In this document: piece after piece, positions 385 through 62,500 of the stretch | How the letters are laid out: each line of letters starts with the position of its first letter | Numbering within the stretch: position 1 is the first letter of the stretch | NCBI RefSeq assembly: GCF_046119375.1 | Contig: NW_027362761.1 | Coordinates: 1,155,742,001-1,155,806,000, forward strand | DNA length: 64,000 nt | Reading direction: 5' to 3' | From: Phyllobates terribilis | Taxonomy: Eukaryota | The notes under the pieces: model-generated | What the model was told of the DNA's origin: nothing | The model's database searches: none | The model's input: the letters and a program-made list of their open reading frames with translations, nothing else | Program-made: the position numbers and the translations under genes

Positions 385-2064
385 TGTTATGTTCTGCTAC
401 CAGAGCTAAGGAAAGAGAGGAGATCTGTCCCTACGATAGAACTCAGCTGAATCCCTACGATGTAACAGGGAACCTGATCCTGCGATCAGACCTGCTAAAG
501 TCCTAAGCTAGTCTGTACGGAGACCTATAGATGTGGGGAAGGAATCCCTACAAGTACTAAGGACTGGGAGGAAAATGGGACACCTCCTAACAGAAACAGT
601 AGCAGACAGACAAACAAACAAAATATAAAGAACAAAGAGGTCCGTAGACCAAGCAAACTAACAGAGTTAGATACAGAGCACAGGCTAGCTAGAAAGTAGT
701 TATACAATGAAGTCCAGCAAAGCCAGAAGGGCGGAGCAGGATTAAATAGGCCAACAAGGTCATGTGACTGTAGCACCCCGGGGACTCGGCTGCTACAGGA
801 GTATTGCACCTCAAACCAGAGGTGTGGTATTCCACTCCCGGGTAAGGATGGAGTGTGGGACAGAGCTCAGATAGCTGCTTGCACTACACTCACCCCATTT
901 CCGGGGGACAGAACAACGGTACTCCCACCAGATAGTTGTGCAGGTACGACAGCGTCTGTCCCTGGCTGGAGTGGGGGGGGGGGAGGAACATCCCAGTAGT
1001 GTAGGAGCAGATAGGGGAGGGACTCTGGGCATTGGTAGGAGCCCATTGGGTGCTAGTCACCTGGGCTCGGGTGTCAGAGGGAGTATATAAGGTGGGCACC
1101 ATCTTGGATTAGGGAGTCGAGTCTGAGGAGAAGCTGAGGGAGAGTTCAGCCAGAGAGGGCTGACAGGGAGCTGTGGCTCCGTCTGGGCCCAGCTCCAGAG
1201 CCAGGCCTGAAGCAGAGAGACGCAGAGAAAGGCCCAGAGACGAAAGCATAGAGGGAACCCTGAGATCCCACGAGAGAACCAAAACGGGTGAAGGGTTGGC
1301 AGAGAAGGGTACCGGATCCCAAACTGGTGGAGGTCAATCATCCTTAGCCAGGAACCGGAGGTCGTGGTCAAGCTTTGGCACGACCCCTCGCCACATCCAC
1401 CAGGAAGGTACGCCACATAGGGTCAGGAAAGCCGGAGAGAGGTTTTGCCCCATAAGGCCCGAGGAAGCCGGACATAGGTGGGTCCCTGGTGAGGACGGCC
1501 AGTAGGAAGGAAGAGAGGGGAGCTCTGGACCACGCTCTGGAATCGCCTGGGAGTTGGCCGAGTCCCTGACCTGGTGGACGCAGCACGGCTCGGGTGGTCC
1601 TACTGTGCACAAGGATCTGATAAAGAACTGTGAGTAAAGCTTTTGAAACTGCACTTCCCGCCTCTGTGTTCCTGCCGTCACACCTGCACCCTCAGTACTG
1701 GGACACCCGCACCATCACTCCCATCATCATCTCTAACAGATCTGCCCTGAGGCCATACTCCTCCCGTGGGGAGTCATCTCATTCTCAGCTGCACAAACAA
1801 CACCGGCCTCAGCGGACTGCCGTGCAGCGGCGGTCCCGTGACCGCAATCCACGGGTGGCATAGTCGAACATTCTAACATCTACTGCTATAGACTGCCACT
1901 CAGTTTGACTCCCTGGGCACGGACCGGGTCACCGCCACGAGACTACTACCCCCATCTGATCCGGCTCCGGGTAAGCCCCCGTGCGCGCGATGCCGCGCGA
2001 CGCAGCAGGCCCAGGGGCGCGTCATGACCAGCAAAGGAAAAAACCTAAGAGCAAGGTTCTAACA
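385..2064 (-). mobile_element. 5' LTR (~420 bp) of the sushi-like Gypsy element, split by a nested solo LTR at 769-2024
   Basis: TGTTA...TAACA termini; homologous (reverse complement) to solo LTR 43821-44252; directly upstream of gag. Confidence 0.85.
769..2024 (+). mobile_element. Solo LTR, Gypsy tRNA-Ser-primed lineage
   Basis: TGTAGCACCCC...GGCGCGTCA; 4-bp TSD TGAC (765-768 / 2025-2028); TATA-like TATATAA ~1084; AGTAAA ~1635. Confidence 0.9.
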
Positions 2065-3680
2065 GCTGCTCCGTCTTGCGTGGCGGCGGTTGCGGGCGCA
2101 CCATCGGGGCTGTCAGCCTGGTCAGCGACGTCGGGCTGTTGCTGCAACATCTTGGCGCCCCCCTAGTGAACCGTGGCCTACCTTCCTTCTGTAGGCCGCA
2201 GCTCCGCAGGCGGACCTTGCGTCGCTTACGTTCCACATCAGAGCGTTCGCTTGGGCTTCCTGCCAGGACCTGACGCTGCGTCAGTGCGTGGGGCGTGTCC
2301 TCGACTTCGCGCGCTTTCAGCGGTTATGCCCTCTAGTTTTCCCACGGTTACGCCCTTCTTCTCGCATGGCGACCGGAAAGATGGCGGCCAATGGCGGGAA
2401 ACTCCAGAAAATGGCGGGAAAAGCTTCACCACTGTGAGTTTTTTACAGTTTCTTAAGGCGCACAGTACCCGGTGGCAACGGGCACAACTCCTTCTGTTGT
2501 CGCGAGCACGCAATCCTGTTCGTGACGCCAGTGAGAGAGATGTGGCACCCAGGGGATGGGGACTACTCGGCGCCCGGGCCTTAATGCCTGGCCTTGGGGG
2601 ATGTCGCAGTGGTCGGCTCCGGGGCCCGTACCCTGGGGTCTCTCTTAAAAAAAAGGGGTTAAATGGAAAATGAAAGTTCGTGACGCCACCTGTGGTGTCT
2701 GGTGAGGACCACCAGCGCTGCGGCAGTCCACTGAGGCCGGTGTTACGGCAGCTATGATGGGGTAGCTCCCCACAGGTGGAGCTAGGCCTCAGGGCAGCGG
2801 TGTTCGGTAAGGTGCACTATATGGCGGTGACCCAGCCAGGTCCAAGGAAAAAATGGGAGACACACTCACGTTTGGCTTCAGTACCTTTTTACTGGTGGAG
2901 TTGCGGTACCGCCCGGAGCACTGTAGGATGAGGGGTGCACTGCAGGTCTCTCCCCAGTGAGCAGGTATAGGGCCTCCTGTATCCTTGCCGCTTGTGTAGT
3001 TTATGGCCTGTCTGAAACTAGGTCTAACTTAGTCCTTGTGTTGCGCCGGCTGACCTGGTGTTAGGGCCTTTTGCTGAAGAGCACGCTCCTGGTATGGCGG
3101 AGCCTCCGTGCCTCCTGGTCCTGTTACGTGTCAGCTCCTGGGCTATCCTGAGACCTGAAGTCTTCCAGGAAAGATTCGGTTGTTTTCCACAGAGGGTATA
3201 CTGCTCTGCAGACTCGGAGCCGGTGTCCGGTATATTTCTGGAGTGAGCTTATGAAGCTTCTCGGTCCCCGATGCTACTGTTCCACTAGCCTTCGGCCTAC
3301 TCTGGGCCCTCACTAGGCTATTCACACTGGCAGTAAGCTGGCTGCCTCTTCTGCCGCTCTTTAGAGCATCGGCAACGCTCCTAGCTGTCTCTCTCTGAGC
3401 TGCTTGCAGCAGACTCCAAACAACTCCTCTCAGCAGAAACCTGCTGAGTCACTAACCTTCTGTGTCTCAGCAGAGACTCCTGACTGGACTCACTCCTTAG
3501 ACAACTGACTGAACTTCCTCTCTTCCTGCCTCCACCCTCCTTTATATATTCACTAAAGGGCTCCCTCTGGTGGTTCTGAGGTAGGGTGGAGGTGTGTGTA
3601 TGCTCTGAGGGCCTCTTGTGGAGAAAACCTGAAATGCACCCCCCTTTGGTCTCTGACTCCATGCAGAGCAGGGCGTCACA
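2065..3680 (-). mobile_element. Gypsy element 5' end: LTR 2541-3680, PBS, leader and first 28 codons of a probable gag (ATG 2150), interrupted by the sushi-like element
   Basis: TGTGACGCCC...GGGTGCCACA LTR, PBS 10 nt downstream, GCCAAGATG start; inserted into the left arm of hAT copy 1 (3681 matches 22739 onward in copy 2). Confidence 0.85.
2512..2530 (-). promoter_or_regulatory. PBS complementary to tRNA-Ser(CGA) 3' end
   Basis: Plus strand AATCCTGTTCGTGACGCCA matches the 3' end (with CCA) of vertebrate tRNA-Ser(CGA) as recalled; not database-checked. Confidence 0.8.
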
Positions 3681-4030
3681 ATTGCAGTCCTTTTAAGGAC
3701 TAGGTTACAGCATTTCCTACGACTTTTATCAGGCAGGTCTGTGCTCTTAAATAGATAGGTTGGGAGTAAAGACTAATTGTAATTGCAGTCCTTTTCAGGA
3801 CTAAGTTACATCAGTTCCTATCAGTTTTTGCAAGGCAGGTCTGTACCAGTGCTGTGCAAGTTTTTTTCACAGCATTTGGCTAAATCTAGCAAAGCTAATC
3901 CTTTTTGGCCTATTGCAGAGTGTGTTAGTCAGTGGAGTAGCCTATCTGTGTTGCAAGCTACACCACCTGTGTATAGAATACCAATTTTTTTACTGCACCT
4001 AGTGAAGTAAAACCTTTTGGGCATAGCATC

Positions 4031-9780: not shown

Positions 9781-9784
9781 CTCC

Positions 9785-11345: not shown

Positions 11346-13145
11346 TGTATGGAGTTGTTCAATAAAGGGCCCAAAATTAAGATAACATAGACGGGAGAGG
11401 TCTCAATGAATAGGAATTCCTAAGAATTTGATACCCTGTGAGGGCCAGGCAAAGGGAAAGTTGGACTGGATGGAATCCTGTATGGATTTGGGGAGGGAGA
11501 CATCGAGGGCCTCAGACTTCGCTGCATTGATTTTAAAATTTGACCATGTAACAAAGTGATCTATTTCAGCCATAACAGCAGGGATGGATATATGTGATTG
11601 AGTGATATATACTAGGACATCATCAGCAAATAGAGAGCACTTGTACTCGGTGCCTCCCACCTCAATCCACCTAATATTGGGGTTATGGCGAATTGATGAG
11701 AGCAGGTGCTCCGTGACTAGGATGTATAAGAGAGGGGACAGAGGACATCCCTGCCTTGTCCCATTGGTGATTATGAAAGGTGATGAAAATGTTCTGACGC
11801 GCCCCCTGGGCATTGGGACATCCGGAGCCGGACCCTTTTTGGTGGATGCTGGTGGTTGTAGTCTCCGTGGCGGCGACCCGGTTCCGTGGCTCAGGGTGGT
11901 CACACCAGTGGCGGAACTATTTATGTGGTTTTGATGTTTAAATGTCCGACTACGCCACCCGTGGATTGCGGTCAGAGTGAACCGCCGCTGCAGGGCAGAC
12001 CGCTGGGGCTGGTGTTGTGGGTGCAGCAGAGCGTAGCCTCAGGGCAGTGTATGCGGAGGATGGGGGTGATGGTGCAGGGCAGCAGCAGTAACGACACGGA
12101 GTCAGTGATGCAGTCCAAGGCCTTTACTCACAGTTCTTATTATCCAGACCACTTCTGCAGGTAACGGCTGCCCACGTCTTACTGTGCTCACCAGGTGAGG
12201 GGCTCAGACAACTCCCAGATAACTTTGGAGCGCTTCACAGGAACCCCTTTGTGTGTCCTTTGTCTGGCCTTTCTTACCAACCCTTCTGTCCGGCTGCCTC
12301 GGGCCTCCTCTTGGTAAACTTGGCGCCAGTTTCCCTGACCCTATGTGCTGCCCTCCTAGCGGGTGTAGCGAGGGGCTGCGCCACATAAAATGTCACAGCC
12401 TCCGGTTCCTAGCTGAGGGTCGTTTCCCGCCTCCACTAGTTTCGGGGACCGGTCTCCCCCTTTGGCCTGAGCCCTCCACGCAGGTGGATTCGGGCGTGCG
12501 GTGGCGACTCGCCCGTCCACACCCCTGGGATCCCTTCGTTCCTCGTTCCTGGAGCCTTCTCCGCTCCTCTTCCTTCCTTCTCCCTCTTCCAGGCCTGGGC
12601 CTCTGTTACTAGGCCCGCCTCCGGAGCAGAGCTCATGCAGAGTCCCTGCTCCCTGTCACTTCTGCTCAGACTTCTCTGCACTGAACTAAGATGGTGCCCA
12701 CCTTTTATACTCCCTTCTCAATGCACCCAGGAACTGATTCCTCCCTGCTCCTGCACTACAGGGTTCCCCTTCCTCAGTGTTCCCTCCCCCCACTCCAGCC
12801 AGGGAAAAGGACTGTCGTGCCCATCTCAGGGGCATATTGGTCGCCCTGCCCCACGGCAATGTGGTGTAATGCATGCAGGTGTCGGGTCCTGATCCACACT
12901 CCATCCTTACCTGAGAGTGAGATATCACACCTCTGGGTGAGGTGCAATACCTCTGTAGCAACCGAGCCCTCGGGGTGCTACAGTTCCATTCATCTTCAGC
13001 CTAGGTGACGTATTGCGATACAGGGCCGTGATTTTGGCTATAAAAGGGTGCCCTAGACCCCTACCCCAAGCTTTTTAAGAGAATAATATATGGCGTGCCA
13101 GGAGACTCTATGGAATGCTTTCTCAGCATCCAACGAGAGTATCTA
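11346..13145 (-). pseudogene. L1-clade LINE reverse transcriptase fragment interrupted by a solo LTR
   Basis: LSLDAEKAFHRVSW (~13095-13140), GHPFIAKITALY...MNGT|FSSPF, GTRQGCPLSPLLY, LFADD; the frame is continuous across the LTR. Confidence 0.9.
11795..12982 (-). mobile_element. Solo LTR, same subfamily as 769-2024
   Basis: TGTAGCACCCCG...GGCGCGTCA on minus strand; TSD GTTC (11791-11794 / 12983-12986). Confidence 0.92.
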
Positions 13146-18405: not shown

Positions 18406-19733
18406 TTACAGGAACATGGTCTGATCATACCACATTTCCTGGGCAGGGGAGGAAGTGTGGCGCCCCTGCGGGTCCAGTCGCCACAGAGGTACTGCATCTC
18501 ACCCAGAGGTGTGGTACCCCACTCTCAGGTAAGGAGGGAGCACTACCCGAGACCCACACACCTGCATCCAACACTACACCAGTCCAGACCTGCAGGCGGG
18601 GCAAGATGCATTTGTCCACTGCTGAGCCCTGCCCCTGGCTGGAAGGGGGGGGACCAAGAGACGGGGAACAATGTAGTGGGTGTGGGTGGACAAAGCAGAT
18701 CAGTGGAGCACAGACAGGAAGGGTATAAAAGTCAGAGAGAAACATCTAGAAGGGTTCAGTCCTGCTCAGGAGAGCAGTGCAAAAGGGTCCATTCTCCTGG
18801 CTCCAGTGCTTGGAGCAGGAGTTCAGTTGAGAGAGAGGAGTCGGGCCCAGAGAGAGGCCCAGGAGAAGGAAAGAGAGGAGCAGTGAGGAGGGCTCCAGGA
18901 GAGACAGAGGGGATCCCAGGGGCACAGCGAGCGCAGAGGCCACCTGTGCGCCCGAATCAACACTGACGTGGAGGGATCAGGCCGCGGAGAGGGGACCGGC
19001 CCCTAAACTAGTTGAGAACAACCAGGCTCAGCTAGACAACCGGAGGCTGCTGCATTTTCAAGGTGTTGCAGCCAAAACCCACAATTATATAGCCGAAAAG
19101 GTTGCCGCATAGGGTCCAGGGGACTGAGAGCACGTCGCCCGACAAGGCCCGAGGCCACTGGCTTGGGACACTGATTGTGAGGCGCAGGGCAGGAGGGTGA
19201 GAGCCAGCGCAGTGAGACGACCGGGAAAGGCACATAGAACGGGGTCCCTTTTAAGTGCTCCTGAGGTACCTGAGAGATTGCTGGTTCCCTACCCCGGTGG
19301 ACATAGGACGACGAGGGCGGTCATTACCGGCTGCATCGGTGACCTGCCTTAAACTGTGAGTAAAGCCTGAAGACTGCACCCCACTGAATCCTTGACTCAT
19401 TACTGCGCCACCAGCCCTGCACTACACTGCACAGCAACATCTACCTCATCAAATCATCAACTACACTGCCCTGGAGCTAAGCTCTGCCTGTGGAGAGCTG
19501 AACCAACTCTGCTGCGTCACCACCAGCTCCAGAGGATCTGCACCGCAGCGGCAGCCCCATATAGCCGCATACCACAGGTGGCGTCACGAACATTATCTCT
19601 AAAAACTTTATTCCCCTTTTACTTTCCCTTTAATTGACCGCCCTGGGTCACGGACCGGGTCACTGTCACCGTGATATACCCCAGCACCGACCCGGCTACC
19701 GAGTACCCCACGGCCCAGGGGGTACGTCAAACT

Positions 19734-19751
19734 TGGCGTCAGGAACAGGAT
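19734..19751 (+). promoter_or_regulatory. PBS, tRNA-Ser(CGA) type (1 mismatch)
   Basis: TGGCGTCAGGAACAGGAT 4 nt after the LTR end. Confidence 0.8.
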
Positions 19752-20543: not shown

Positions 20544-23090
20544 GGTGGTGGAGGAGGAGAGCGTACCCCTACCATCTATGACTGATGAACCGGCTGCGCC
20601 ATCTAGTGGTGGACAAATGTTCCCCTGGAGGGGACACCACTACTGAACTGTTCACTTAAAAGTTAAAAACTGTATATAGTTACCCAGAAGGGTATTGATA
20701 ATCCTTTAAAGAGTTAAAAAAAAGTTTTTGTTTGTTTAGTGTACCCGGTTAAGGTACAAAGACTTATAGGTTGTGGACATTGAACAGCCAAAAAACTTTA
20801 TTTGTATATAGTTAGCACTTCTTAAGGTGCTTCCTGTTGGTTTTCTAAAGACCACTGAACAAAAACCCGTTGGCCAAAGACGTGGTCCAACAAGTGGATC
20901 ACCTATGCCCTGCAGCCACGCCCAGGGTCTACGCTGGGAGTTTTCGAACGGGTCCCTCATGTTGCACCTTTACCAGTGAGATGGATACCCGGTTAAGGAT
21001 CTCACTGTAGCCTGTTGAAAAGTGTTTTATGTGAAAAAATAAAGAAAAATGTTATTAAAAGTGGTTTTATAATGTTTTATATAATGATAGAAACATGTAA
21101 CATTCAAGGAAAGTGCATCCCATAAAGGGAAGAAAAAGTTGTATATTGTTCTTCTATGTGATGCATCTAAAAATTTTGTATGTCTTTAAAATACCTTGTT
21201 TTTACTCTGTTCCAGCCCGCGGACGTGCTGTGTTTAACGGGGGGGGGGAGGGGGGTATGTGGTGCCCCTGCGGGTCCAGTCACCACTGAGGTACTGCATC
21301 TCACCCAGAGGTGTGGTACCCCACTCTCAGGTAAGGAGGGAGAACTACCCGGGACCCACACACCTGCATCCAACACTACACTACTCCAGACCAGCAGAAG
21401 GGTCAAGATGCATTTGTCCACTGCTGAGCCCTGCCCCTGGCTGGAAGGGGGGGAACCAAGAGAGGGGGAACCATTTAGTGGGTGTGGGTGGAGGAAGCAG
21501 TTCAGTGGAGCACAGACAGGAAGGCTATAAAAGACAGAGAGAAACATCTAGAAGGGTCCAGTCCTGCTCAGGAGAGCAGTGCAGAAGGGTCCACGCTCCT
21601 GGCTCCAGTGCTTGGAGCAGGAGTTCAGTTGAGAGAAAGGAGTTGTCCCCAGAGAGAGGCCCAGGAGAAGGAAAGAGAGCAGCAGTAAGGAGGGCTCCAG
21701 GAGAGACAGAGGGGATCCCAGGGGCACGGCGAGTGCAGAGGCCATCCGTGCGCCCGAATCAATGCTGACGTGGAGGGATCAGGCTGCAGAGAGGGGACCG
21801 GCCCCTAAATTAGTGGAGAACAACCAGGCTCAGCTAGACAACCGGAGGCTGCTGCATTTTCAAGATGTTGCAGCCAAAATCCACAATTATATCGCCGAAA
21901 AGGTGGCCGCATAGTGTCCAGGGGACTGAGAGCACGTGGCCCGACAAGGCCCGAGGCCACTGGCTTCGGACATTAATTGTGAGGCGCAGGGCAAGAGGGC
22001 GAGAGCCAGCGCAGTGAGATGACCGGAAAAGGCACATAGAACGGGGTCCCTTTTAAGTGCTCCTGAGGTACCTCAGAGATTACTGGATCCCTACTCCGGT
22101 GGACACAGGACGACGGCCATTACCGGCTGCAGCGGTGACCTGGAACTGCCTTGAACTGTGAGTAAAGATGAAGACTAGAGATGAGCGTTGTTCTACTCGA
22201 ACTGTTCGCCAATCTCAAATTCGAGCTGTTTTGGGCGGTGTTTGAGCCGGTCGGCGAACACGAACAATTTGAGAAAAATTCGGCTGTTCGAGGTTATGTT
22301 CGATAACTGTTCGTGCACCAAAATCATAACTGGATTTTTTCTCAGTAATGATGAAAATTAATGTTAATACGCAGTTTGAGTGTACAGCGGGGCGGGGGGA
22401 GGGGCAGGGGATGGATCTCTGCAGGAACAATGAAGATCTCCATTTTTTTTTCTCTTTCCCGCATTTGCAGTGGGGAGGTGCAATCTGTCAGCCTATCAGC
22501 AGCGCACACACGGAGCAAAGTGCTTTTTTTCACACAAGCAAGGGCATGTGTGATTGGCAGTGTATGTCACATGTCCTTGCCCTATAAGACCAAGCCATTT
22601 TCCCCGTCGCCACCATTTTCTCACTGCTGCAGCTGCGTGTTAGACGGCACCGCTGTTGCTGTGTGCGCTATACCTTGTTAATTTCAAGCCAATTTTCGCA
22701 CAAATATACAGATAGCTTGGGAGTAGGGAATAGTTGTGATTGCAGTCCTTTTAAGGACTAGGTTACAGCATTTCCTACGACTTTTATCAAGCAGGTCTGT
22801 GCTCTTAAATAGATAGATTGTGGGAGTAAAGACTAATTGTAATTGGAGTCCTTTTCAGGACTAGGTTACATCAGTTCCTATCAGTTTTTGCCAGGCAGGT
22901 CTGTGCCAGTGCTGTGCAAGTTTTTTTCACAGCATTTGGCTGAATCTAGCAAAGCTAATCCTTTTTAGCCTATTGCAGAGTGTGTTAGTCAGTGGAGTAG
23001 CCTATCTGTGTTGCAAGATATACCACCTGTGTATAGAATACCAATTTTTTTACTGCACCTAGTGAAGTAAAATCTTTTGGGCATAGCATC

Positions 23091-24588
23091 ATTCTATTAG
23101 TCCATCTATACTGACCTCCATCAGGTTGCAAACTGAATATAATTTTTTTCTGCATCTAGCTCTGAAAAAATATTTGGGCTTCTAGCAGTGTGTGGGACTT
23201 GTTCTATTAGTCCTTCTATACTGACCTCCAGCAGGTTGCAAATTGAATATAATTTTTTTCTGCATCTAACTCTGAAAAAATATTTGGGCTTCTAGCGGTG
23301 TGTGGGACTTGGTCTATTAGTCCATCTATACTGACCTCCATCAGGTTGCAAATTAAAAATAATTTTTTTCTGCATCTAGCTCTGAAAAAATATTTGGGCT
23401 TCTAGCAGTGTGTGGGACTTGGTCTATTAGTCCATCTATACTGACCTCCATCAGGTTGCAAATTAAAAATAATTTTTTTCTTCATTTATCTCTGAAAAAA
23501 TATTTGGGCTTCTAGCAGCGTGTGGGACTTGTTCTATTAGTCCATCTATACTGACCTCCATCAGGTTGCAAATTAAAAATAATTTTTTTCTGCATCTAGC
23601 TCTGAAAAAATATTTGGGCTTCTAGCAGTGTGTGGGACTTGGTCTATTAGTCCATCTATACTGACCTCCATCAGGTTGCTAATTGAATAAAAAAATTTTC
23701 TGCATCTAGCTCTGAAAAAATATTTGGGCTTCTAGCGGTGTGTGGGACTTGGTCTATTAGTCCATCTATACTGACCTCCATCAGGTTGCAAATTGAATAA
23801 AAAAAATTTCTGCATCTAGCTCTGAAAAAATATTTGGGCTTCTAGCGGTGTGTGGGACTTGGTCTATTAGTCCATCTATACTGACCTCCATCAGGTTGCA
23901 AATTAAAAATAATTTTTTTCTTCATTTATCTCTGAAAAAATATTTGGGCTTCTAGCAGCGTGTGGGACTTGTTCTATTAGTCCATCTATACTGACCTCCA
24001 TCAGGTTGCAAATTAAAAATAATTTTTTTCTGCATCTAGCTCTGAAAAAATATTTGGACTTCTAGCAGTGTGTGGGACTTGGTCTATTAGTCCATCTATA
24101 CTGACCTCCATCAGGTTGCAAATTGAATAAAAAAAATTTCTGCATCTAGCTCTGAAAAAATATTTGGGCTTCTAGCGGTGTGTGGGACTTGGTCTATTAG
24201 TCCATCTATACTGACCTCCATCAGGTTGCAAATTAAAAATAATTTTTTTCTGCATCTAGCTCTGAAAAAATATTTGGGCTTCTAGCAGTGTGTGGGACTT
24301 GGTCTATTAGTCCATCTATACTGACCTCCATCAGGTTGCAAATTAAAAATAATTTTTTTCTGCATCTAGCTCTGAAAAAATATTTGGGCTTCTAGCTGTG
24401 TGTGGGACTTGGTCTATTAGTCCATCTATACTGACCTCCATCAGGTTGCAAATTGAATAAAAAAATTTTCTGCATCTAGCTCTGAAAAAATATTTGGGCT
24501 TCTAGCGGTGTGTGGGACTTGGTCTATTAGTCCATCTATACTGACCTCCATCAGGTTGCAAATTAAAAATAATTTTTTTCTGCATCTA
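23091..24588 (+). repeat. 110-bp tandem array (~13.6 units)
   Basis: Period 110 from 23091 to 24521. Confidence 0.97.
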
Positions 24589-24704
24589 ACCCAGCCAATA
24601 GTTTTGGCCTAATACCACAGTTTGGCCACTCAGCTCTGCTCGGTTACCATCCATTGTTTTTTTGTGCAAACAACTCCAGAGTTGTGAATTAGTTAACCAC
24701 CAAA

Positions 24705-27700
24705 ATGAGTGGAAAAAGGCCTGCTGCTGGTGGAAAGGGGAATAGGCGTGTTGGGAAGGGGAAAAAAGGTTGTGTCCGTGGGGTAGGTGCAGAAGAAAGA
24801 CCATCTTCCAGCCAAACTAAAATGTCTACTTCTTTTAGCGGACAATGTGATAAGATCCCTTTCTTACGGCCACGCCAATCGCTACAAATTCCAGATGAGG
24901 CACAAAAACAGCAGGTGCTTCAACGGATATCAAGTGCTCCTTTAAGTGGGCTCTCCTCCACATCAACTTCAACATCACAAATACTCCAGTCCTCAAAGGT
25001 GTCACCCAAATCGCACTTGCTTCCTCACAGCTCCCAAATCTCCAGCTGCCCGTCTGAGTATGAGGTAGAACAGATGGTTGAGTCTGCAGAGCTGTTTACT
25101 CATACTATAGCCTGGGAATCAGAGGTCGACTCCAGCGCTTCTGTGAATCCAGACGAGGAAATGATCTGCACTGATGCCCAGAATCTTTATGAGTCGGATC
25201 CAGGACCAGACGCAGAAGGTTCTGACCATAATGTAGACCCTCATTCCCAAACTGTAACTCCTGTTGGTGGAGACAATGAGGAAGACGATGATAAGACTCA
25301 AATACCTGATTGGAGCGACAACTTTAGTTTTTGTCAGGGCAGGAACAGGTTGGCTCTGAGGACGACGGGTGTGATAACGCACAGGGTGATGATGATGAGG
25401 TCGGAGATCCCACTTACTGTCAACCCACAGTCAGCCAAGAGATGAGGTCAGCAGAGGAGGTGGAGGAAGATGCTAGTGACGACGAGGTCAGGTTGCGCCT
25501 TCCTGGACAGAGACGTAGTACTGGAAGCACGTCAACAACTGCATCCTCAAACACAACTCTGCCTCTCACCACAAGTCGTGGTGGCTCTTCAGGTCGCATG
25601 GGTGCTAAGCCTTGCATAGCCTGGGCATTTTTTCAGATCGATAAAGATGACCCAACTCGTGTTATCTGTAACATTTGTCAGCAAAAGCTAAGTAGAGGCC
25701 AAAAAATACATAGTTTGAGTACTTCATGCATGAACCGGCACATGGACATGAAGCATAAGTTGCAGTGGGAAGCTCAGTGTGCTACAATGCGGCCTAGCCG
25801 GCCGGGCCAACCACCGTCTGCCATATCTTGTGCATCCGCGGCCTCTTCATCCTCTGTGACTGGGGGGACAGCAGTCACACCTGTTTTGGGGCGCAGACCT
25901 GCCACCTCTTTACCCGCAACAGCCAGCGTGATTGGCAGGTCATCATTTTCTTTGGAGGTGGTAACACCAGCTGGTCTTGAGCGCTGTCCGACATCGATAG
26001 CACCACCTTTGGATCAAGGCAACCTAACATGTCCGCCTGCATCTTCCTCACAGACCGGCAGTTTGCCGGGGACACCCTTATCAACCCCGTCTAAGCACAA
26101 TAGCCAGCCCTCGGTCCCTCAGATGTGGACAAGTAAAAGACCATTTCCTCCTAGCCATGAGAAAGCTAAGAGGTTGAATTTCACCATCTGCAAGCTCTTG
26201 GCTACAGAAATGCTGCCTTTCCGCCTGGTGGACACAGAGGATTTTCGAGACCTTATGTCCGTCGCAGTGCCCCAGTACCAGATGCCCAGTCGGCACTACT
26301 TCTCAAAGAAAGGTGTGCCTGTGCTCCACCAGCATGTCGCACACAACATCACCGCTTCTTTGAGAAACTCTGTGTGTGACAGGGTGCATTTCACCACAGA
26401 CACTTGGACGAGTAGGCATGGACAGGGGCGTTACATGTCGCTGACTGGGCACTGGGTAACTATGGTGACAGCAGGACAAGGGGCTGCTGTCCAAGTCTTG
26501 CCGTCCCCACGAGTTGTGCGTCAATCCTCTTTATGTCAAAGTTCCTCCACTGCTTCTGCCTCCTCAACCTCCTCTCGGTCTTCCACCTGCACCCAAAGCC
26601 TGTCTGGTCATGCCACAAGCTTTCTAACTGCGCAGAAGGGATCCTGCACACCTCCTTACTATGCTGGGAGTAGGGCTCAACGTCATCAGGCGGTTTTTAC
26701 ATTGAAATGTCTGGGAAATGTGAGTCACACAGCTGAGGAGTTGTGGTCAGCTCTGGAGAACCAATTTCATGAATGGTTGTCTCCACTGGACCTGAAACCA
26801 GGGAAGGCCGTGTGCGACAATGCTGCAAACCTGGGTGCGGCCCTTCGCCGGGGCAATGTCACACACGTGCCTTGTATGGCTCACGTGTTGAACCTGGTTG
26901 TCCAGCAATTTTTAGCCCACTATCCTAGACTAGATGGCCTTCTGCAGAGGGCACGGTCGCTGTGTGCTCACTTCCGCCGTTCGCATCCCGCAGCTCAGCG
27001 ACTTACATCTCTACAGAAGTCGTTGGGCCTGCCACTTCACCGGCTAAAATGCGATGTGCCTACCCGGTGGAATTCAACTCTGCACATGTTGCAGCGACTG
27101 TGGCAGCACCGACAAGCCCTGGTGCAATACGTTCTGACGTATAGCCTGGGCCAACGAGATTCAGAGGTGGGGCAAATCACGCTGGAGGAGTGGTCTCAGA
27201 TCAGGGACCTATGCACCCTTCTGCACAGTTTTGAAATGGCGACGAAGATGTTTAGTGCTGACGATGCCATTATCAGCATGACTATTCCGGTGATTTACAT
27301 GCTGGAGCACATGTTAAACAGAATTCGGAGTCAGGTGGTGGCACAAGAGGAGGTGGAGGAAGTAGAGGAGGAGGAGTTGTATGCGGAAGGGCTAACATCT
27401 GCAAGGTCCAGACGGTCGGCAGCACCAAGGCGGCAGGCATGTGAGGGTGGGGGAGATGATTTTACCAGGGCGCATGGTAGCAGCCAAACTAGTGAGGAAG
27501 GTGCAGGAGCCCAGGAAGAAGTGGAGGACGAACTGATGGAAGACTCATCAGATGAGGGAGACCTTGATCACATTTCTGTTGTGCGAGGTTGGGGGGAGAG
27601 GACAGAGGAAGGAAGCATGATTGTTACCTCGCCACCAACACAACAGGGACTTGGTGCTCCTGGATGCGCAACACACATGAGTGCCTTCTTGCTGCACTAC

Positions 27701-28383
27701 CTGCAACATGACCCTCGAATTGTGAGAATTAGAAATAATCCTGACTACTGGGTTGCCACACTGTTAGGTCCCCGGTACAAAAGTAAATTTGCAGAAATTA
27801 TTCCTGCCATAGAAAGGGATGCACGCATGCAGGAGTATCAGCAGAGACTGTTGCAGAATCTTACATGTGCTTTTCCACAAAATACCAGTGGTGCACGTAG
27901 TGAATCTCACAGTTCCAACTTGCCAACCGTGGGACCGTCAAGTGTTCAGCACTCAAACCGTAACAGAACCACAGTATCTGCTGGTAACATCAATTTTGCG
28001 GAATCATTTCACCACTTTTTTTAGCCCATCCTTTGCAAGGCCACAGGAGACAAGAAGTCTGACACATAGTCAACGCCTAGAGACGATGGTACAGGAGTAT
28101 CTCCAAGTAAACATTGAAGCCACGACTGTGTCACTGGACCCTTGCTCTTTTTGGGCTTCCAATCTGGATAAATGGCCGGAGCTAGCCACTTACGCCTTGG
28201 AGATCTTGTCATGCCCCGCAGCCAGCGTTCTGTCTGAACGTGTGTTCAGCGCTGCTGGTGGTGTGCTGACATAAGCGCACCCGGCTCTCCACTGATAATG
28301 TAGACAGACTCACGTTCATAAAGATGAACAAATCATGGATCCGAAACGACTTTTCTACCCCTGTGTCATCCTGGGGAGAGTAA
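24705..28383 (+). pseudogene. hAT transposase, frameshifted (three ORF pieces)
   Basis: Near-identical to 5756-9352; -1 in a T-run at ~25330, +1 in a T-run at ~28020, 2-bp deletion giving TAA at 28272-28274. Confidence 0.92.
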
Positions 28384-28711
28384 AAGCTTGATGATTGGTT
28401 AAAATCACCCTACCAACCGTTTTAAGCTTTCAAATTACTAATCATGTTTATCTGTATCTTGACTGGAAAATAATTTGGGCTTTGTAGCAGTGTGCAGCAC
28501 TGATCCTATTAGGCCATCTATAATAAGCTTCACCAGATTTAAAATTAAAAATAATTTTTAGCTGCATCTAGCCCGGAAAATAATTTTGGGGGTCCGAGAT
28601 GCGCAAGACACATAAGTGCCTTCTTGCTGCACTACCTGCAGCATGACCCTCATATTGTCAGAATTCGAAGTAATCATGACTACTGGGTTGCCACACTCTT
28701 AGATCCCCCAA

Positions 28712-30082: not shown

Positions 30083-30154
30083 TACATGTGCTTTTCCACA
30101 AAACACCAGTGGTTCACGTAGTGAATCTTACAGTTCTAACTTGCCAACCGTGGT

Positions 30155-31975: not shown

Positions 31976-32164
31976 AAATTTTTAACTGCATCTAGCCCAG
32001 GAAATACTTTGTGCCTAGTAGCAGTGTCTGCTAGTCAGCGGATTATCCCGGCTGTTAAGCAAGCTACACCACCTGTAGTTTAGACACTTAATTTTTTCAA
32101 AGGAAATGCTTCGGGACCATGGGATACTTAGTGAAGAGCATCAGGAGGCACCCCAAGGCATAGG

Positions 32165-32348
32165 GGCTGGGACTGGCAGTAGGATGCCTTGCGGTGGACA
32201 GCCGAGCTCGATCCTTATAAAAGCTTTTTAACTGCAGCAGCTTTAGTGGACGCTACTGGAGCTGGAATTACGCGGCTGCTGGCATGAGACTTGCCCTCCA
32301 ATAGATCCTTGTAAATGGATTTAAAGTGTATTCATTCAAATTAGAGAG
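32165..32348 (-). pseudogene. 18S rRNA fragment (copy of 13340-13523)
   Basis: Same 18S segment. Confidence 0.9.
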
Positions 32349-55450: not shown

Positions 55451-57533
55451 AAATGCCCATATGTAGGACTTGCCACCACCACGACCAGACCTTTAGGGCA
55501 CTGTTGAGTCTCTGCCACCAACAACACATGTAGCAACACCTGCTCCCCAGTCCCTAGTTGACCGCAGGAGAAACAGATTTTGGCCACACAATGCCCTTGC
55601 TGTTTATCAGCAAGGCCGACACCTTTTTCTGATTACATCACCTCCCTGACACCCCAATCTGGTCTTGTGCAACACACCATCATCATTATCATCATCCCTG
55701 ACTCAGCTGGCAGTTGCCTCTGTGTGTGAAATGTCCTGAGTTCATTGCCACCTTCCCTCCACCCCTGCTTGATTTCTACCTCTAGATTTGCCCTACTTCA
55801 GAGTGCTACTACCCCTGACAGTGCCCCTACCCCACTGGCCAAACAAAGCCACCAACGCAGCTAAGTGTTTGAATAGTTTCCTTCATGTCTTCAGCCCCAC
55901 ATCATCTGAGTACAAAGGCTGACTGTTCATCTCATACAGTAAATCAACTGTAAGAAGTTGTTGTGAAATGTCTTCTTTAGCCTCCGGGGTGTTATTGATT
56001 ATTCTTATTCTTATTATTATTTTATTTATTTTTAAAGCACCATTGATTCCAGGGTGCTGTACATTTGAAGAGGGTTTACATAAATACATATATAAAATAG
56101 AGTAAACTAACATTGCCGAGATGGTACATAGGGGGAGCGGACGCTGCCCTCACGGGTTTACAATCTAAGGGGTATTGGGGCAGATGGTAGTGAGTTGGCA
56201 GTGAGATTATTTCAGGCTGTAGATGTGACACCCGATAGTCCTCCCTGGGAAATGGGGTTACTCGGAGCCGGGTCAGTGTAGGTGTTACGGGGGATGCAGT
56301 CGTGGCCTAGACCCGTTCCTTGCCCAGGGCAGTCACATAAAAGATAGATGTAATGGGCTTTCAATTAAGAGTGGTATTTTTCGACTACGCCACCTGCGGT
56401 TTCCGGTGATGGGCACCGGCGCTGCTTCAGTCCTCTGAGGCCGGTGTTACGGGCAGCTAAGATGGGACGGCTCCCCACAGGCGGAGCAGGCCTCAGGGCA
56501 GTGTGAGAAGTGATGGTGGGTGCAGTGCCGCGCAGGAAATAATGAGCTGAGACGGTGTATGAAGTCATCCGGGTCTTTACTCTACTCACTTGGGATGATC
56601 TTTCAGCCACAAAGCTTCTCTCTGCTACTCGCGGTGTACTGCGGCCACCGGGAAGGGGGTTCAGCACTTTTCAGGTAGATCAGGAGCACCTGTCGAGACC
56701 CCGCTGGTGTGTGTTCCTCTCCTTGGTAGGTTGTTCTCCCACTAAGTCTTCTCCTGACTGTGTGTGGTACGAACGTGGTGTAAGGCCGGGTCCCACTGGA
56801 TAAACGCAGTGTAAGAGATACAGGTGGCGTAGGCCACTCCGTCCGTATCCCCTTGGGATCCACTAAGCCTCCGGGCTTTTCCGACTGAGACGTGAAGTGA
56901 CAAAGTCAGATATCGGGGGCTGTTCACCCCTCTTGCAGCAGGAATCCCTCTGACTAGGCCAGAGTAAAGAATACAGGTGGCGTAGGCCGCTCCGTCCGTT
57001 TCTCCCTGGGATCCTTTTGCCTGTGGAGCCTATCTCCTCTGCTCCCCTCCAGGCCTTCTTAGGTAAGGACCTTGACCGGGTAGAGACAGTGGTTAACTCT
57101 GACCCACTCCCCGTCTCAAGACCAGAGAACGAGGACCGTGTATCTCCAGTCGGCTGCGGCCTTATGCTGGACTCTGGCGGGTGACTACAATCAGAGACGA
57201 AGACCACAATCACAGACGAAGATCACAATCAAAGACCTTGAACCTAAGATGGCCGTAGATTAAATATGAAACAATATGTGTTTCCTAAAAGTGTGTCCAC
57301 CACCCTCACCCACTACATGGTTCCCCCTATCTTTTGGTTCCCCCCATCCCCTCTATCCCAGGCCGGGGCAGCACCCTGGTGCATTTAGGCCCCCTACAGG
57401 ACAGGAGTGGTGTAGTGTTGAGTGGTGAAGTGGTGTCCTGAGAGATGCTCCATCCTTACCTGGAAGAGGAGATACCACACCTCAAACTGAGGTGCAGTAC
57501 CCCTGTGTAGACTGAACCCTCAGGGGCGCCACA

Positions 57534-57542: not shown

Positions 57543-57671
57543 GGTGAAACACAGCACGTCCGCGGGCTGCAACAGAGTAAAGAGTTGGTACAGACATTCA
57601 ATTTTTAAAAGTTTTTGTAAACATGAAAAATTCTTCCCTTTATGGGAGGTTAGGACACTTTTAACGTTGCA

Positions 57672-57709
<38 letters not shown>

Positions 57710-58104: not shown

Positions 58105-59457
58105 TTAAAAGTGGTATCCCCACCGGGAAAATGGCTCATCTTTCCCGACGGAGCCTGACCGGTCCTCTGTGGGCAGGTGAGTGGGGGCATCCTCCTTAAA
58201 TACCCTGTGGACGTCCAGGGCATACCACCCATGCTCCCCATGGTGGCGGGTGTAGAACACCAAATCGCCCGGGTAGAGGTTCCGGCCAGGGTGGCCCAGC
58301 TCCAGCCGCTGCTCCACGTCCCGCCGGTTCACAAACACGTCCCGGTCGAACTGTGGGCTGCGGATGAAGCCCCATCCTGCCACCTGGTGGAAGCACACAA
58401 TGGCGCCTTCTTCCCGGGGGCTTGGACGAGTGGCCTCCGCCTGACGGGCCTGCGCTTTTGCAGCCTTGGCGCGCACCTCCAGGCGCTCGCAGCGGACCCG
58501 CTTCTCCCGTCGCTCCTTTTCAAACTGGAGGAGTTCCTTTCGGCACGTCTCCTCCCGCCTCCGCGTTTCGGCTTTGGTTTCCCGGGGGAAGCCCATCAGG
58601 TCGCCCCCCCGGTTATCCCAGGCAAACTCCTCTGCCGCCGGGCAAGCGACTGATGGCGCGGGCAGCAGCAGTAACGGGGGTTGCTGCGTGTGCTCTGTGG
58701 ATGTGGCCCAGTCCGGGTTGGGGCAGGTGGACACCCAGGTCAATGCAGGCACTTCCGGTTCGGGGGTCGAGAGGCATAACAGGTCCCCGACTGTGGCGGT
58801 GGCTTGGGCCTCGGCCTCTGGAGCCAGGAGCTGTTCCCACACAACGGCGCCCGGGGATAGGGGTGCCGGCAGGAGGCTTAGGAGGGCTTCGGTGCGTTCC
58901 GCGCCCAGGATAGGGGTTTTTGCCTTACCCGCACTTGGGCTGCACGGGGCCTCCTGGGCTTCCTCCGCCTGGGCTGGAGCCTCACTTGTTAGGTGCGACA
59001 AGCTCTGGCGGCGGTCCCGGATCCTTCGCAACACATCCTCCCTCCACTCTGCGGTGGCCAGTCGCTGGGCCTCTGCGACCTTCCGGGTCAGGTCCTGCGA
59101 TTCACCACGGAGGAACTCGGCCTCCTCCGCGGTCAGGTGGATTCCTTCCATACCGAGGGAAATAGCAGCAGGTGGGCCAGCGACGGGGGACTTCTCCTTT
59201 GCTTCTTCCATCTTGGCTGCTGGGTGCGGTCTCTTTCTCCTCCTTCTTTTGGGGCGGCTCCAGGGCGGCTGGCTGACGGGCACTCCTTGGGACGCCCCAT
59301 CCGTCTTGACGGACACTACTATGCGGACTGTCTCTGATGGAGGGGGCGGTCTGCTCTTTTGGCGCCATTGTGGAGCCAGGCCCACGATGGGAGGACTTTG
59401 GTTGCTGTTGCTTTTGCACATAATGGCGTCCGTTCTTTTTGGGCTGCGCCACTTCAA
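58105..59457 (-). CDS. Coiled-coil plus cold-shock domain (OB-fold) protein, up to 450 aa; start codon uncertain (first ATG ~59421, or GCCAAGATGG at MEEAKEK)
   Basis: ~58201-58415: EGAIVCFHQVAGWGFIRSPQFDRDVFVNRRDV...LYPGDLVFY...GEHGWYALDVHR has RNP1-like GWGFI and RNP2-like DVFV motifs at CSD spacing; two charged helical stretches upstream. Confidence 0.8.
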   Translation of the reverse strand: MKWRSPKRTDAIMCKSNSNQSPPIVGLAPQWRQKSRPPPPSETVRIVVSVKTDGASQGVPVSQPPWSRPKRRRRKRPHPAAKMEEAKEKSPVAGPPAAISLGMEGIHLTAEEAEFLRGESQDLTRKVAEAQRLATAEWREDVLRRIRDRRQSLSHLTSEAPAQAEEAQEAPCSPSAGKAKTPILGAERTEALLSLLPAPLSPGAVVWEQLLAPEAEAQATATVGDLLCLSTPEPEVPALTWVSTCPNPDWATSTEHTQQPPLLLLPAPSVACPAAEEFAWDNRGGDLMGFPRETKAETRRREETCRKELLQFEKERREKRVRCERLEVRAKAAKAQARQAEATRPSPREEGAIVCFHQVAGWGFIRSPQFDRDVFVNRRDVEQRLELGHPGRNLYPGDLVFYTRHHGEHGWYALDVHRVFKEDAPTHLPTEDRSGSVGKDEPFSRWGYHF

Positions 59458-59542
59458 GTGTGAAATGACAGTCTTTTTGTGTAAAGGCGCACAGTACCCG
59501 TCGGCAATGGGGGTTATTCTTTTCCGTTGCTGCGGGCACGCG

Positions 59543-59560
59543 ATCCTGCCGACTACGCCA
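59543..59560 (-). promoter_or_regulatory. PBS complementary to tRNA-Ser(AGA/TGA) 3' end
   Basis: Plus strand ATCCTGCCGACTACGCCA, 18 nt, 4 nt from the LTR end. Confidence 0.88.
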
Positions 59561-62500
59561 AGTTTGTGACACCCGATAGCCCTCCCTTGGAAATGGGGTT
59601 ACTCGGAGCCGGGTCAGTGTAGGTGTTACGGGGGATGCAGTCGTGGCCTAGACCCGTTCCGTGCCCAGGGCAGTCACATAAAAGATAGATGTAATGGGCT
59701 TTCAATTAAGAGTGGTATTTTTCGACTACGCCACCTGCGGTTTCCGGTGATGGGCACCGGCGCTGCTTCAGTCCTCTGAGGCCGGTGTTATGGTCAGCTA
59801 AGATGGGACGGCTCCCCACAGGCGGAGCAGGCCTCAGGGCAGTGTGAGAAGTGATGGTGGGTGCAGTGCCGCGCAGGAAATAATGAGCTGAGACGGTGTA
59901 TGAAGTCATCCGGGTCTTTACTCACTTGGGATGATCTTTCAGCCGCAATGCTTCTCTCTGCTACTCGCGGTGTACTGCGGCCACCGAGAAGGGGGTTCAG
60001 CACTTTCCAGGTAGATCAGTAGCACCTGTCGAGACCCCGCTGGTGTGTGTTCCTCTCCTTGGTAGGTTGTTCTCCCACTAAGTCTTCTCCTGACTGTGCG
60101 TGGTACGAACGTGGTGTAAGGCCGGGTCCCACTGGATAAACGCAGTGTAAGAGATACAGGTGGCGTAGGCCGCTCCATCCGTATCCCCTTGGGATCCACT
60201 AAGCCTCCGGGCTTTTCCGACTGAGACGTGAAGTGACAAAGTCAGATATCGGGGGCCGGTCACCCCTCTTGCAGCAGGAATCCCTCTGACTAGGCCAGAG
60301 TAAAGAATACAGGTGGCGTAGGCCGCTCCGTCCGTATCCCCCTGGGATCCTTTTGCCTGTGGAGCCTATCTCCTCTGCTCCCCTCCAGGCCTTCTTAGGT
60401 AAGGACCTTGACCGGGTAGAGACAGTGGTTAACTCTGACCCACTCCCCGTCTCAAGACCAGAGAACGAGGACCGTGTATCTCCAGTCGGCTGCGGCCTTA
60501 TGCTGGACTCTGGCGGGTGACTACAATCAGAGACGAAGACCACAATCACAGACGAAGATCACAATCAAAGACCTTGAACCTAAGATGGCCGTAGATTAAA
60601 TATGAAACAATATGTGTTTCCTAAAAGTGTGTCCACCACCCTCACCCACTACATGGTTCCCCCTATCTTTTGGTTCCCCCCATCCCCTCTATCCCAGGCC
60701 GGGGCAGCACCCTGGTGCATTTAGGCCCCCTACAGGACAGGAGTGGTGTAGTGTTGAGTGGTGAAGTGGTGTCCTGAGGGATGCTCCATCCTTACCTGGA
60801 AGAGGAGATACCACACCTCAAACTGAGGTGCAGTACCCCTGTGGTGACTGAACCCTCAGGGGCGCCACATAGACTTTACTGAAGAGATGTGTTTTCACTT
60901 TGCATCTGAAGATTTAATTGTGGAAGACAATTGGATGTGCTGAGGCACTGAATTTCAAAGGATGAGGAATGCTCGGGAAAAATCTTGGAGGCGATCGGAA
61001 GAGGAACGTACGAGGTAAGAGAGAAGGAAATTTTGTGAGGACTAGAAATTACATGGTGGAAGGTATTGGGAGATTTGTGGAGGAGACAGATTATGGATAG
61101 CCTTGTAAATCATTGTTAGAAGCTTAAACAGAATTTGTTGGAAAATTGGAAGCCAGAAAAGAGATGGGCAGAACTGGAGGAATAGAGAGGAGAGAGGTGG
61201 ATTAGTCGGGCACCAAAGTTAAGGATGGACTGGAGAGGTACGAGAGTTAGTTGGGAGGCCACAGAGGAGGATATTGCAGTAGTTGTGGTGAGAGATAATG
61301 AGCGCGGCACTAATATTTTAGTAGATTTAGGGTTGAGGAAAGGATGAATTCTGGAATTTTTTTTGAGTTGGAGGCAGCATGAGGTGTTAAGGACTTGTAG
61401 TTTGAAGGACAGGGCAGAGTCAAGAATTACTCTGAAGTGATGGACTTGTAAAATAGTGTAAAGTGTGATGTCATTTCCTGTGATAGATAGATCAGTTAGG
61501 GGGTTTGAGTGAGATGGAGGAAGGATGATGAGTTTAGTTTTGTTCACTGAGTTTTAGAAAGCGTGATGAAAAGGAGGATATGGCTGATAGACACTCTGGG
61601 ATTTTGGACAGCAGAGAGGTGACATCTGAGTCAAAGAGGTAGATCTGAGTGTCATCAGCATATAGATGGTACTCGAAGCAATGGGACTATCCCAGACCAA
61701 AGGTATAACTTGAGAAGTGTAGGGGTCCCAGGATAGAGCCTTGAGAGGCACCAACAGAGCGGGATGAGGAGGTAGTATGGGAATGGGAGATGCTAAGTGT
61801 GCGGTTAGTGAGGTATGAGGAGATCCAGGAGAGGTCAAGATCTTTGAAGGGAAGACAGGATCTGTAGCAGGAGGGAATGGGGAAATGTGGGAAAAACAGA
61901 TAACACATCTAGGTGAAGGAGTACAGAGTATTGTCTGTTAGGTTTGGTAGTTAAAAAGGCATTTGAAACTTTGGTTAAGGCAGTTTCAGTGAAGTGGTAG
62001 GGATGGAAGCCGGGTTATAGGTAGTTGAAGAGTGTGTTGGATGAGAGGTGGGAGGAAAGTTCAATGTGAACATGTTCAAAGAATTTTGGGGTGTAAGGGA
62101 GTGGGAATATGGGGCGATGGCTGAACATAGGGATTGGGTCAAGGGATGGCTTTTTCAGGCTTTTTTTACACAAGAGGTTAATGATGAGTTGAAGAGATGG
62201 GTAATGGCTAGGATAAGCAGGATGGTGAGGTTGGGGAGGAGGTGGGAAGGGATAGAGTCAAGCGCACAAGTGGTGAGGTGTGATTTGCAGTGAAAAATAG
62301 AAAACTTTTCTTCACTAATGGTGGGAAAGAAGGTTATGGGAGAAGGACAAAGGTCTGTTATGCAGAGGGGTTGTGGTGGTTGAACATTAAAACTTTTTCT
62401 AATGTGTTCGATCTTGTTTTTGATATGTGCGTCAAGGTCTTCTGCTGAAATAAGGGGAGGGGGACGGTGGACGGAGGAGAGAATTAAAAGTGTTGAATAA

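Follow-up and report, generated by a model that had tools for sequence, protein, structure and literature searches.

Why should a long terminal repeat (LTR) carry, within itself, a second copy of the sequence to which the primer tRNA of its element binds? This question is raised by a stretch of 64,000 nucleotides (nt) from the 10.6-Gb genome of Phyllobates terribilis, called the window below, in which LTRs of a Ty3/gypsy group contain an internal match to the start of their tRNA-Ser primer binding site (PBS). All eight internal motifs named in the original prediction were present at their coordinates and on their strands, each with an 11-14-nt match to the tRNA complement, against a chance expectation of about 0.05 for exact 11-mers in the window. 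The motifs start 148-169 nt from the LTR end instead of the predicted 135-160, and their context reads CCAC(A/G)GG as proposed, except for CCGCAGG at 56392 and 59733. The eight LTRs represent five independent insertions, namely the solo LTR 769-2024, the 5' LTR 2541-3680 with its PBS, a solo LTR carried by a hAT transposon, and the elements 18456-33216 and 56224-60869. The three PBSs visible in the window are of the same isoacceptor type as their own internal motifs, as had been claimed (Table 1). What had been called the Ser(AGA) type has a 3' end common to the Ser(AGA) and Ser(TGA) tRNA genes of this genome; we write AGA for both. Genome-wide, the internal site and the PBS were found to switch together.

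Co-variation of the internal site with the PBS

The genome was searched with exact patterns for an internal site followed by a PBS 137-167 nt downstream. The resulting pairs (internal site/PBS) comprised 4,117 CGA/CGA, 54,327 AGA/AGA, 3 CGA/AGA and 1 AGA/CGA, and hence 58,444 of 58,448 were concordant; under independence, about 7,650 discordant pairs would be expected from the same counts. The contingency test of internal motif against PBS type proposed earlier thus yielded only four discordant cases. Three of these, the CGA/AGA pairs, proved to be chimeras put together from unlike LTRs, each having an AGA-type 3' LTR of its own. The single AGA/CGA case was a true switch of the PBS only, present in one copy. 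When loci were picked by the PBS alone, 57 of 60 were concordant and none discordant, with three unscored.

Since copies within a genome are not independent, we built LTR trees without the motif. A tree of 101 rows, from which 14 passenger copies had been left out, required two changes. A tree of 61 de-replicated LTR lineages (12 of 73 were dropped as chimeric, deleted or long-branch) required two joint switches, and monophyly of the AGA type was rejected on it (approximately unbiased test, p = 0.0013). With short segments tested separately, AGA monophyly was rejected for the leader only (p = 0.02). Two switches within the Ser group are therefore the likely history, as far as LTR sequences can tell.

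The internal site was not confined to serine primers. A Thr family, which contains the best PNMA-profile matches in the genome and whose reverse transcriptase (RT) is about 39% identical to that of the Ser families, has a 12-nt copy of its own PBS, placed 78-80 nt upstream of it. The copy was present in 26 of 28 PBS-bearing loci of one set and in 17 of 18 of another, and two loci are common to both. Among 29 Leu loci, a sample that left out 21 tandem loci (L338-L358), 15 had a 9-11-nt PBS copy 180-390 nt upstream, 2 had tandem PBS repeats, and 12 had no internal site. The original claim that the two sites switch together is upheld by the pair counts, by the two switches on the tree, and by the Thr and Leu families. 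These results argue that the internal site tracks four primer types and does not arise simply because an element has a PBS.

Relatives from metagenomes, at 33-41% RT identity, were without LTRs in most of 42 loci. Five of them with a Leu-type PBS and LTRs of about 280 bp had no internal copy (the best match had 4 mismatches of 11), and three further relatives with a visible PBS had none in the available sequence. Viral contigs, searched by RT and for the Thr PBS, contained neither a relative nor that PBS. When other PBS families were sought by a library-free scan, the output was noisy and revealed no additional one. A pattern for a further internal type in the Ser LTR context gave 7,289 matches. 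It was rejected as a replicating subfamily, as most of 30 loci taken from the first 100 of these matches were one passenger with identical flanks; in most of these loci (L117-L144), a single solo LTR with the variant motif had been amplified inside another repeat, and this LTR accounted for most of the matches listed.

Predicted structure and candidate functions of the internal site

In a tRNA, the last eleven bases consist of the CCA end, the discriminator and the 7-nt acceptor strand. The internal match is 9-13 nt long across the families and runs from the CCA through the discriminator into the acceptor strand, which it covers wholly or for the most part. Anchored on the upstream sequence, the match holds over positions 1-11 (AGA) or 1-13 (CGA), and breaks off abruptly at an unalignable A/T-rich linker. 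In AGA loci anchored on the upstream helix, positions 1-10 matched in 24-25 of 25 loci and positions 15-16 in none. Most mismatches within the motif were G>A changes of the CpG type.

Immediately 5' of the motif lies a strand of 6-7 nt complementary to the loop of an upstream hairpin, which predicts a pseudoknot. It was found in 99 of 119 LTRs, compared with 9 of 595 offset controls and 22 of 591 shuffles; by type, it was present in 30/37 CGA, 34/36 AGA, 26/32 Thr (a set selected on the motif itself) and 9/14 Leu LTRs. Two pseudoknot positions covary among 59 Ser lineages (A-T 32, G-C 25, G-T 2 at one; C-G 47, A-T 11, T-G 1 at the other), and the enclosing helix occurs in five compensatory states. 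The T of TGG is invariant despite its variable loop partner. In other families the receptor strand reads CAACGGG, ATTCGGG, GGCCGG or TAGAAAC. The CA-GG that had been likened to a fossil LTR/PBS junction is better explained as the 3' strand of this covarying helix, and its sequence differs in other families. The pseudoknot had no place in the original prediction. The remaining part of the LTR is predicted to form a hairpin with its base at the LTR end, which would bring the motif and the PBS together. Rfam covariance models, applied to window positions 56200-60900 and to 10 loci, gave only weak unrelated matches (E 0.3-5), with none to hepatitis delta virus-like, twister or hammerhead ribozymes, T-box elements or xrRNA. 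Ribozymes of the hepatitis delta virus-like and twister types, considered on topology, were rejected, with no Rfam support and no conserved catalytic motif seen by eye.

The position of this module on the RNA was judged from sequence signals. TATA boxes lie near +135 in seven of eight autonomous-type Ser LTRs checked. An AGTAAA hexamer, a putative poly(A) signal found in 65 of 73 lineages, precedes the motif by about 170-220 nt, and a GT-rich element follows the hexamer at 26-34 nt. From this order of signals, the internal site and the pseudoknot probably lie in the unique 5' region (U5), and each genomic RNA would therefore carry one site. A looped poly(A) model like that of human T-cell leukaemia virus would place the motif at the 3' end of the RNA; it was judged improbable in view of the GT-rich element directly behind the hexamer. 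Contigs from the runs searched had no poly(A) ends among the loose ends listed, which speaks neither for nor against a place in U5.

The sequence comparisons make a strong case that the internal site is under selection for pairing, on the RNA, with the 3' end of the primer tRNA. Maintenance for tRNA binding, one of the possibilities raised in the original prediction, remains the best reading, supported by co-variation across four primer types. As to what the pairing achieves, we lean towards a non-priming dock, which would capture the acceptor end of the primer tRNA against the predicted pseudoknot and hand it over to the 18-nt PBS. The tRNA 3' end would pair first with the short internal site, and the resulting duplex would stack on the pseudoknot helix, hindering extension by RT. 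With the predicted LTR-end hairpin placing the dock near the PBS, the tRNA would then move to the PBS, a step favoured by a predicted 10-15 kcal/mol (predicted duplex energies are about -34 to -36 kcal/mol for the PBS, -21 to -25 for the internal site, and about -7 to -12 for partners in cis). Joint switching could arise if mis-priming and the rewriting of the dock from tRNA or PBS sequence, both rare, were to occur, and selection then favoured matched pairs.

Capture and handover is one of several functions that fit, and a number of points weigh against it. Only a handful of independent events are available, and all of them come from a single genome: two Ser switches, one Thr family and several Leu families that are related. 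Recombination could mimic the second Ser switch, and AGA monophyly was not rejected on the upstream (p = 0.90) or tail (p = 0.37) segments. The compensatory changes in the pseudoknot amount to only 1-3 events on the tree, the Thr set in the pseudoknot count had been selected on the motif, and the placement in U5 draws on sequence signals only. The 12 of 29 Leu loci that have no internal site include at least one whole Gmr1-like family, so the site is not universally needed. Finally, the motif has partial partners in cis, namely a bulged downstream strand in most AGA lineages (their own motif being the best match in 24 of 36), a 7-bp upstream partner in Leu families, and partial anti-motif strands in Thr families.

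The strands in Leu and AGA families suit a tRNA-sensing switch, in which, much as in a T-box, the tRNA would bind and remain, displacing the strand in cis and refolding U5 so as to alter translation, packaging or dimerisation, while another tRNA primes at the PBS. The elaborate covarying helices and a leader of more than 1 kb, judged by the TATA position, would also agree with it. However, the partner in cis is placed differently between families and is not type-specific in CGA LTRs (11/37), and a pure sensor would have no need to follow the primer isoacceptor, whereas in fact there is no amplification of mismatched pairs. We consider such a switch unlikely, though it is the most serious competitor of the dock.

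It was also considered that RT may start at both sites, with the internally primed strand aiding strand transfer or being discarded. An acceptor-stem PBS of 11 nt is enough for Drosophila gypsy (PMC1635307), and the single copy L177/L180, in which the internal site of the 5' LTR alone has grown to all 18 nt, could bear the trace of priming at that site. This case shows that rewriting of the internal site from tRNA or PBS sequence is possible, if apparently rare. Against internal priming, only 3 of about 77,900 perfect PBSs genome-wide (8,117 CGA and 69,769 AGA/TGA) sit in the internal context. L178, with a 5' LTR without the tail between the repeats, retains an intact 3' LTR and target site duplication (TSD), and L179 has no 3' LTR within reach. 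Among 17 LTRs altered right after CCACA, all from one sub-lineage context, none ends there with a TSD; nine carry double substitutions, seven have small deletions, and one is a truncated 3' LTR without TSD. In 30 loci, tRNA read-through past 18 nt was observed at the downstream PBS in eight and at the internal site in none, which identifies the downstream site as the priming site. No integrated products of the alternative priming suggested earlier were found, and the proposed search for TSD-flanked LTRs ending at the internal CCACA came out empty. These data indicate that the internal site is not a productive second primer site, and render unproductive or auxiliary priming improbable. The suggestion that the site is regenerated during reverse transcription fails, at least for every cycle, on a young family (LTRs 99.8% identical) in which a deviation at position 11 is inherited in both LTRs beside a perfect PBS.

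Host 3' tRNA fragments are known to repress LTR elements through the PBS, and the internal site, being complementary to the 3' part of such fragments, might serve as their decoy or target. It has no part that pairs with the 5' seed of the fragment, an objection weakened by the finding that repression through 5' untranslated region sites can be seed-independent (PMC12853362). Its predicted binding is, however, weaker than that of the PBS to be protected, a one-to-one decoy on the same RNA would be weak, and the exact adjacency of the pseudoknot would be left unexplained; the decoy is a quite improbable function. Slightly less credible again is an intramolecular role, in which the motif would compete with the PBS for the anti-PBS strand of the element and keep the PBS free without ever binding tRNA. 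The partial anti-motif strands in AGA, Thr and Leu families are in its favour, but CGA has no type-specific partner, and the duplexes in cis are predicted to be far weaker than the tRNA duplex. Least probable, and largely refuted, is the reading of the site as a fossil LTR/PBS junction or as a neutral by-product, whether handed down in the lineage or made anew during reverse transcription: rewriting did happen once and only two switches are needed in the Ser group, but the match is kept across lineages with an unalignable 3' linker and across RT lineages 39% identical that use different tRNAs, Leu families with an identical PBS lack the site, the inherited deviation persists in the young family, and passenger LTRs copied inside other repeats by DNA transposons gather changes in motif and loop (the passenger at 11957 is without the loop).

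Element families, primer tRNAs and features of the window

The Ser- and Thr-type elements are Ty3/gypsy LTR retrotransposons (Metaviridae). In autonomous partners of the Ser type, the LTRs measure about 1 kb and have the form TG...CA, the TSDs are of 4 bp, a polypurine tract is present, gag gives a weak PNMA match, and the pol order is RT, RNase H, integrase. Nine of 11 element loci checked had 4-bp TSDs, polypurine tract and 18-nt PBS all present. The order gag then pol was seen in L110 and L104, with a weak protease match in L104 only; in both, the integrase lies downstream of RNase H, which is not the Gmr1-like order. The Thr-family locus L309 also has the order RT, RNase H, integrase. The PNMA-type gag match reached E 1.6e-37 in the Thr family, and only E 5e-6 to 9e-6 in the Ser families. 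The nearest named pol relatives are anuran (best about 80% identity), followed by teleost. Ser and Thr RTs were sister groups with a support of 91-93 in the Shimodaira-Hasegawa-like approximate likelihood ratio test, to which a long-branch warning is attached. PNMA genes are placed under the Barthez lineage (PMC3670739), and Barthez is a tentative lineage name for the Ser and Thr families. The Leu locus L361, which bears an internal site, has a SCAN-type gag and its integrase before RT and is thus Gmr1-like, and L371, likewise with integrase before RT, has no internal site.

Other observations concern single loci of these families. A weak dUTPase match (E 2.6e-4) lies between protease and RT of a Ser(CGA) element (L104:2922-4262). 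At L105:2996-3435, a GT..AG joint skipping 438 nt over the gag/pol overlap was present in contigs of three of the four runs, possibly from a spliced transcript. The Leu-type elements L363 and L374 contain 52-53-nt tandem repeats with a PBS in each repeat, and L336-L358 form a 4.2-kb tandem array of a Leu-type element on C1.

The Ser PBSs match tRNA genes of this genome at 18 of 18 positions, the one type matching Ser(CGA) and the other the shared 3' end of Ser(AGA) and Ser(TGA). The Leu(AAG/TAG) PBS, with 3,526 occurrences genome-wide, likewise matches at 18 of 18, and the Thr-family PBS matches a tRNA-Thr(TGT) gene at 17 of 18 positions among the matches listed. No tRNA gene was found in two tandem loci, and no Thr or Leu gene within 200 kb near tRNA genes. 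Captured tRNA sequence extends the PBS well past 18 nt in L148, L151, L156, L159, L160, L162, L166 and L171, and in L156 it reaches the anticodon arm of the TGA type. The spacer between the terminal CA and the PBS is 3-10 nt in Ser families (e.g. window 2531-2540 and 59561-59564), which requires that overhangs differing in length be trimmed, by integrase or at another step.

The Ser-group copies of the window are all non-autonomous elements or solo LTRs (Table 1). Non-autonomous partners of both Ser types keep one long open reading frame (ORF) that ends in a cold-shock-like domain. Besides the window (58108-59421 on the minus strand and a remnant at 20461-20562 on the plus strand), it was seen in L109, L113, L107 and about 55 other loci. 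The Pfam CSD match had E 1e-7 in L109 and 2.7e-4 in the window, tblastn identities were mostly 52-100%, and Atlas matches reached only 0.76-0.78. The ORF may encode an RNA chaperone carried by non-autonomous LTR elements.

The motifs at 11957 and 30757 belong to one solo LTR (TSD GAAC), a passenger in two copies of a hAT transposon; those at 19579 and 33062, and those at 56392 and 59733, are in the two LTRs of one element each. The two related hAT copies (window ~3681-13942 and 22176-32849) contain a BED finger, a hAT dimerisation domain and 110-bp tandem arrays, with an ORF of 1,201 amino acids (aa) at 5747-9349. A ninth Ser-group LTR begins at 63355 on the plus strand and runs to 64000, its 3' end including the motif falling beyond the window. 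Minisatellites of 73 and 62 bp, AT-rich inverted repeats and 31/59-bp repeats (40893-43069, 14080-15058 and 43518-43820) are unrelated to the motif.

Table 1. Positions of Ser-type LTRs, PBSs, internal sites and associated features in the window
Feature	Position	Strand	Remarks
Solo LTR	769..2024	+	TSD TGAC
Internal Ser(AGA/TGA) site	1856..1866	+	One G>A change; receptor 1849-1855, loop 1762-1769
True PBS, Ser(CGA)	2513..2530	-	18 nt; 10 nt behind LTR end
5' LTR	2541..3680	-
Internal Ser(CGA) site	2676..2688	-	13-nt match; receptor 2689-2695, loop 2770-2777
Internal Ser(AGA/TGA) site in passenger solo LTR 11795-12982	11946..11957	-	Hairpin loop lost
5' LTR of element 18456-33216	18456..19729	+
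Internal Ser(CGA) site in 5' LTR	19579..19592	+	14-nt match; receptor 19572-19578, loop 19486-19493
True PBS, Ser(CGA)	19734..19751	+	One mismatch
3' LTR of element 18456-33216	21258..33216	+	Interrupted by hAT transposon 22176-32849 (8-bp TSD)
Internal Ser(AGA/TGA) site in duplicate passenger solo LTR 30595-31807	30746..30757	-	Receptor 30758-30764, loop 30846-30853
Internal Ser(CGA) site in 3' LTR	33062..33075	+	Receptor 33055-33061, loop 32969-32976
3' LTR of non-autonomous element 56224-60869	56224..57533	-	98% identical to 5' LTR; behind polypurine tract
Internal Ser(AGA/TGA) site in 3' LTR	56382..56392	-	Receptor 56393-56399, loop 56475-56482
438-aa ORF	58108..59421	-	Weak cold-shock-domain match (E 2.7e-4); sole long ORF of element 56224-60869
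True PBS, Ser(AGA/TGA)	59543..59560	-	18 nt
5' LTR of non-autonomous element 56224-60869	59565..60869	-	TSD TCTA
Internal tRNA-Ser(AGA/TGA) 3'-end complement in 5' LTR	59723..59733	-	Exact 11-nt match
Pseudoknot receptor strand	59734..59740	-	Predicted; immediately 5' of motif
8-nt hairpin loop complementary to receptor	59816..59823	-	Predicted
AGTAAA, putative poly(A) signal	59917..59922	-	189 nt upstream of motif

Comparison with known tRNA-binding sites

Selection and loading of tRNA by LTR elements are known in detail only for human immunodeficiency virus (HIV), Ty1, Ty3 and Drosophila gypsy, and the extra contacts there use other arms of the tRNA. Ty3 has a bipartite PBS, in which about 4,800 nt separate the segments and each pairs with a different tRNA arm (PMC5371799, PMC4974528, PMC11381356). 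The likeness is that more than one genomic segment matches the primer tRNA in a Ty3/gypsy element. The original prediction had set the internal site apart from the Ty3 arrangement, and correctly so, as it equals PBS positions 1 to 9-13 whereas Ty3 uses other arms (PMC5371799, PMC1635307). Here both sites match the same acceptor end, 78-390 nt apart, and are therefore mutually exclusive on one tRNA.

Drosophila gypsy has a second 11-nt site for tRNA-Lys2 near the 3' end of its genome, which pairs with the anticodon and TΨC stems and is dispensable for cDNA synthesis (PMC1635307). It resembles the site described here, itself predicted from sequence, in being a second tRNA-binding site of 11 nt that does not prime cDNA. 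It differs in pairing with other parts of the tRNA, and neither co-switching nor a pseudoknot is described in the portion of that report available (PMC1635307). In Ty1, further contacts of the tRNA close to the PBS help to package the primer and to initiate synthesis, and a 5' pseudoknot is needed for efficient reverse transcription (PMC4974528); the boxes pair with the TΨC and D arms and lie 3' of the PBS, and the pseudoknot joins the repeat region (R) to the region downstream of the PBS (PMC4974528). Ty1 is thus alike in combining extra tRNA contacts near the PBS with a 5' pseudoknot, but its pseudoknot does not adjoin a duplicated acceptor-end site.

In HIV-1, the primer activation signal and the A-rich loop lie in U5, upstream of the PBS, and have to match the primer tRNA, through the TΨC arm or the anticodon loop. 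As here, a primer switch needs a coordinated change at such sites, but those of HIV-1 do not pair with the CCA end. The antiterminator of bacterial T-box riboswitches captures the NCCA end of a tRNA by pairing and helix stacking, with a pairing of 4 nt combined with reading of the anticodon. By contrast, the 9-13 nt of the internal site would invade the acceptor stem, and there was no Rfam match.

The literature searched contained no description of a duplicated acceptor-end site in an LTR, although Repbase reports and the original Gmr1 and Barthez papers were outside its scope and may mention one. Matches to 'two PBS' or 'additional PBS' were unrelated. As predicted from sequence, the combination of a duplicated acceptor-end site, a pseudoknot and repeated co-switching appears to be new among the auxiliary tRNA-binding sites of LTR elements. 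The site and the covarying pseudoknot recur with Ser(CGA), Ser(AGA/TGA), Thr and Leu primers, in more than 58,000 copies of one genome. A practical caution for annotation is that a PBS-like motif inside an LTR can mislead the calling of its boundaries. The module is a short RNA open to in vitro tests, for which matched, mismatched and site-less families offer natural controls. More tentatively, and at somewhat less than even confidence, we propose that several deep vertebrate Ty3/gypsy lineages (PNMA-gag and Gmr1-like) share a U5 pseudoknot with a trap for the CCA end, which may act as a eukaryotic T-box-like dock or switch gating the start of reverse transcription. Such a module would lock each family to its primer, and a change of primer would then persist only where two sites switch together. 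If true, this would account for the failure of PBS-only switches to spread.

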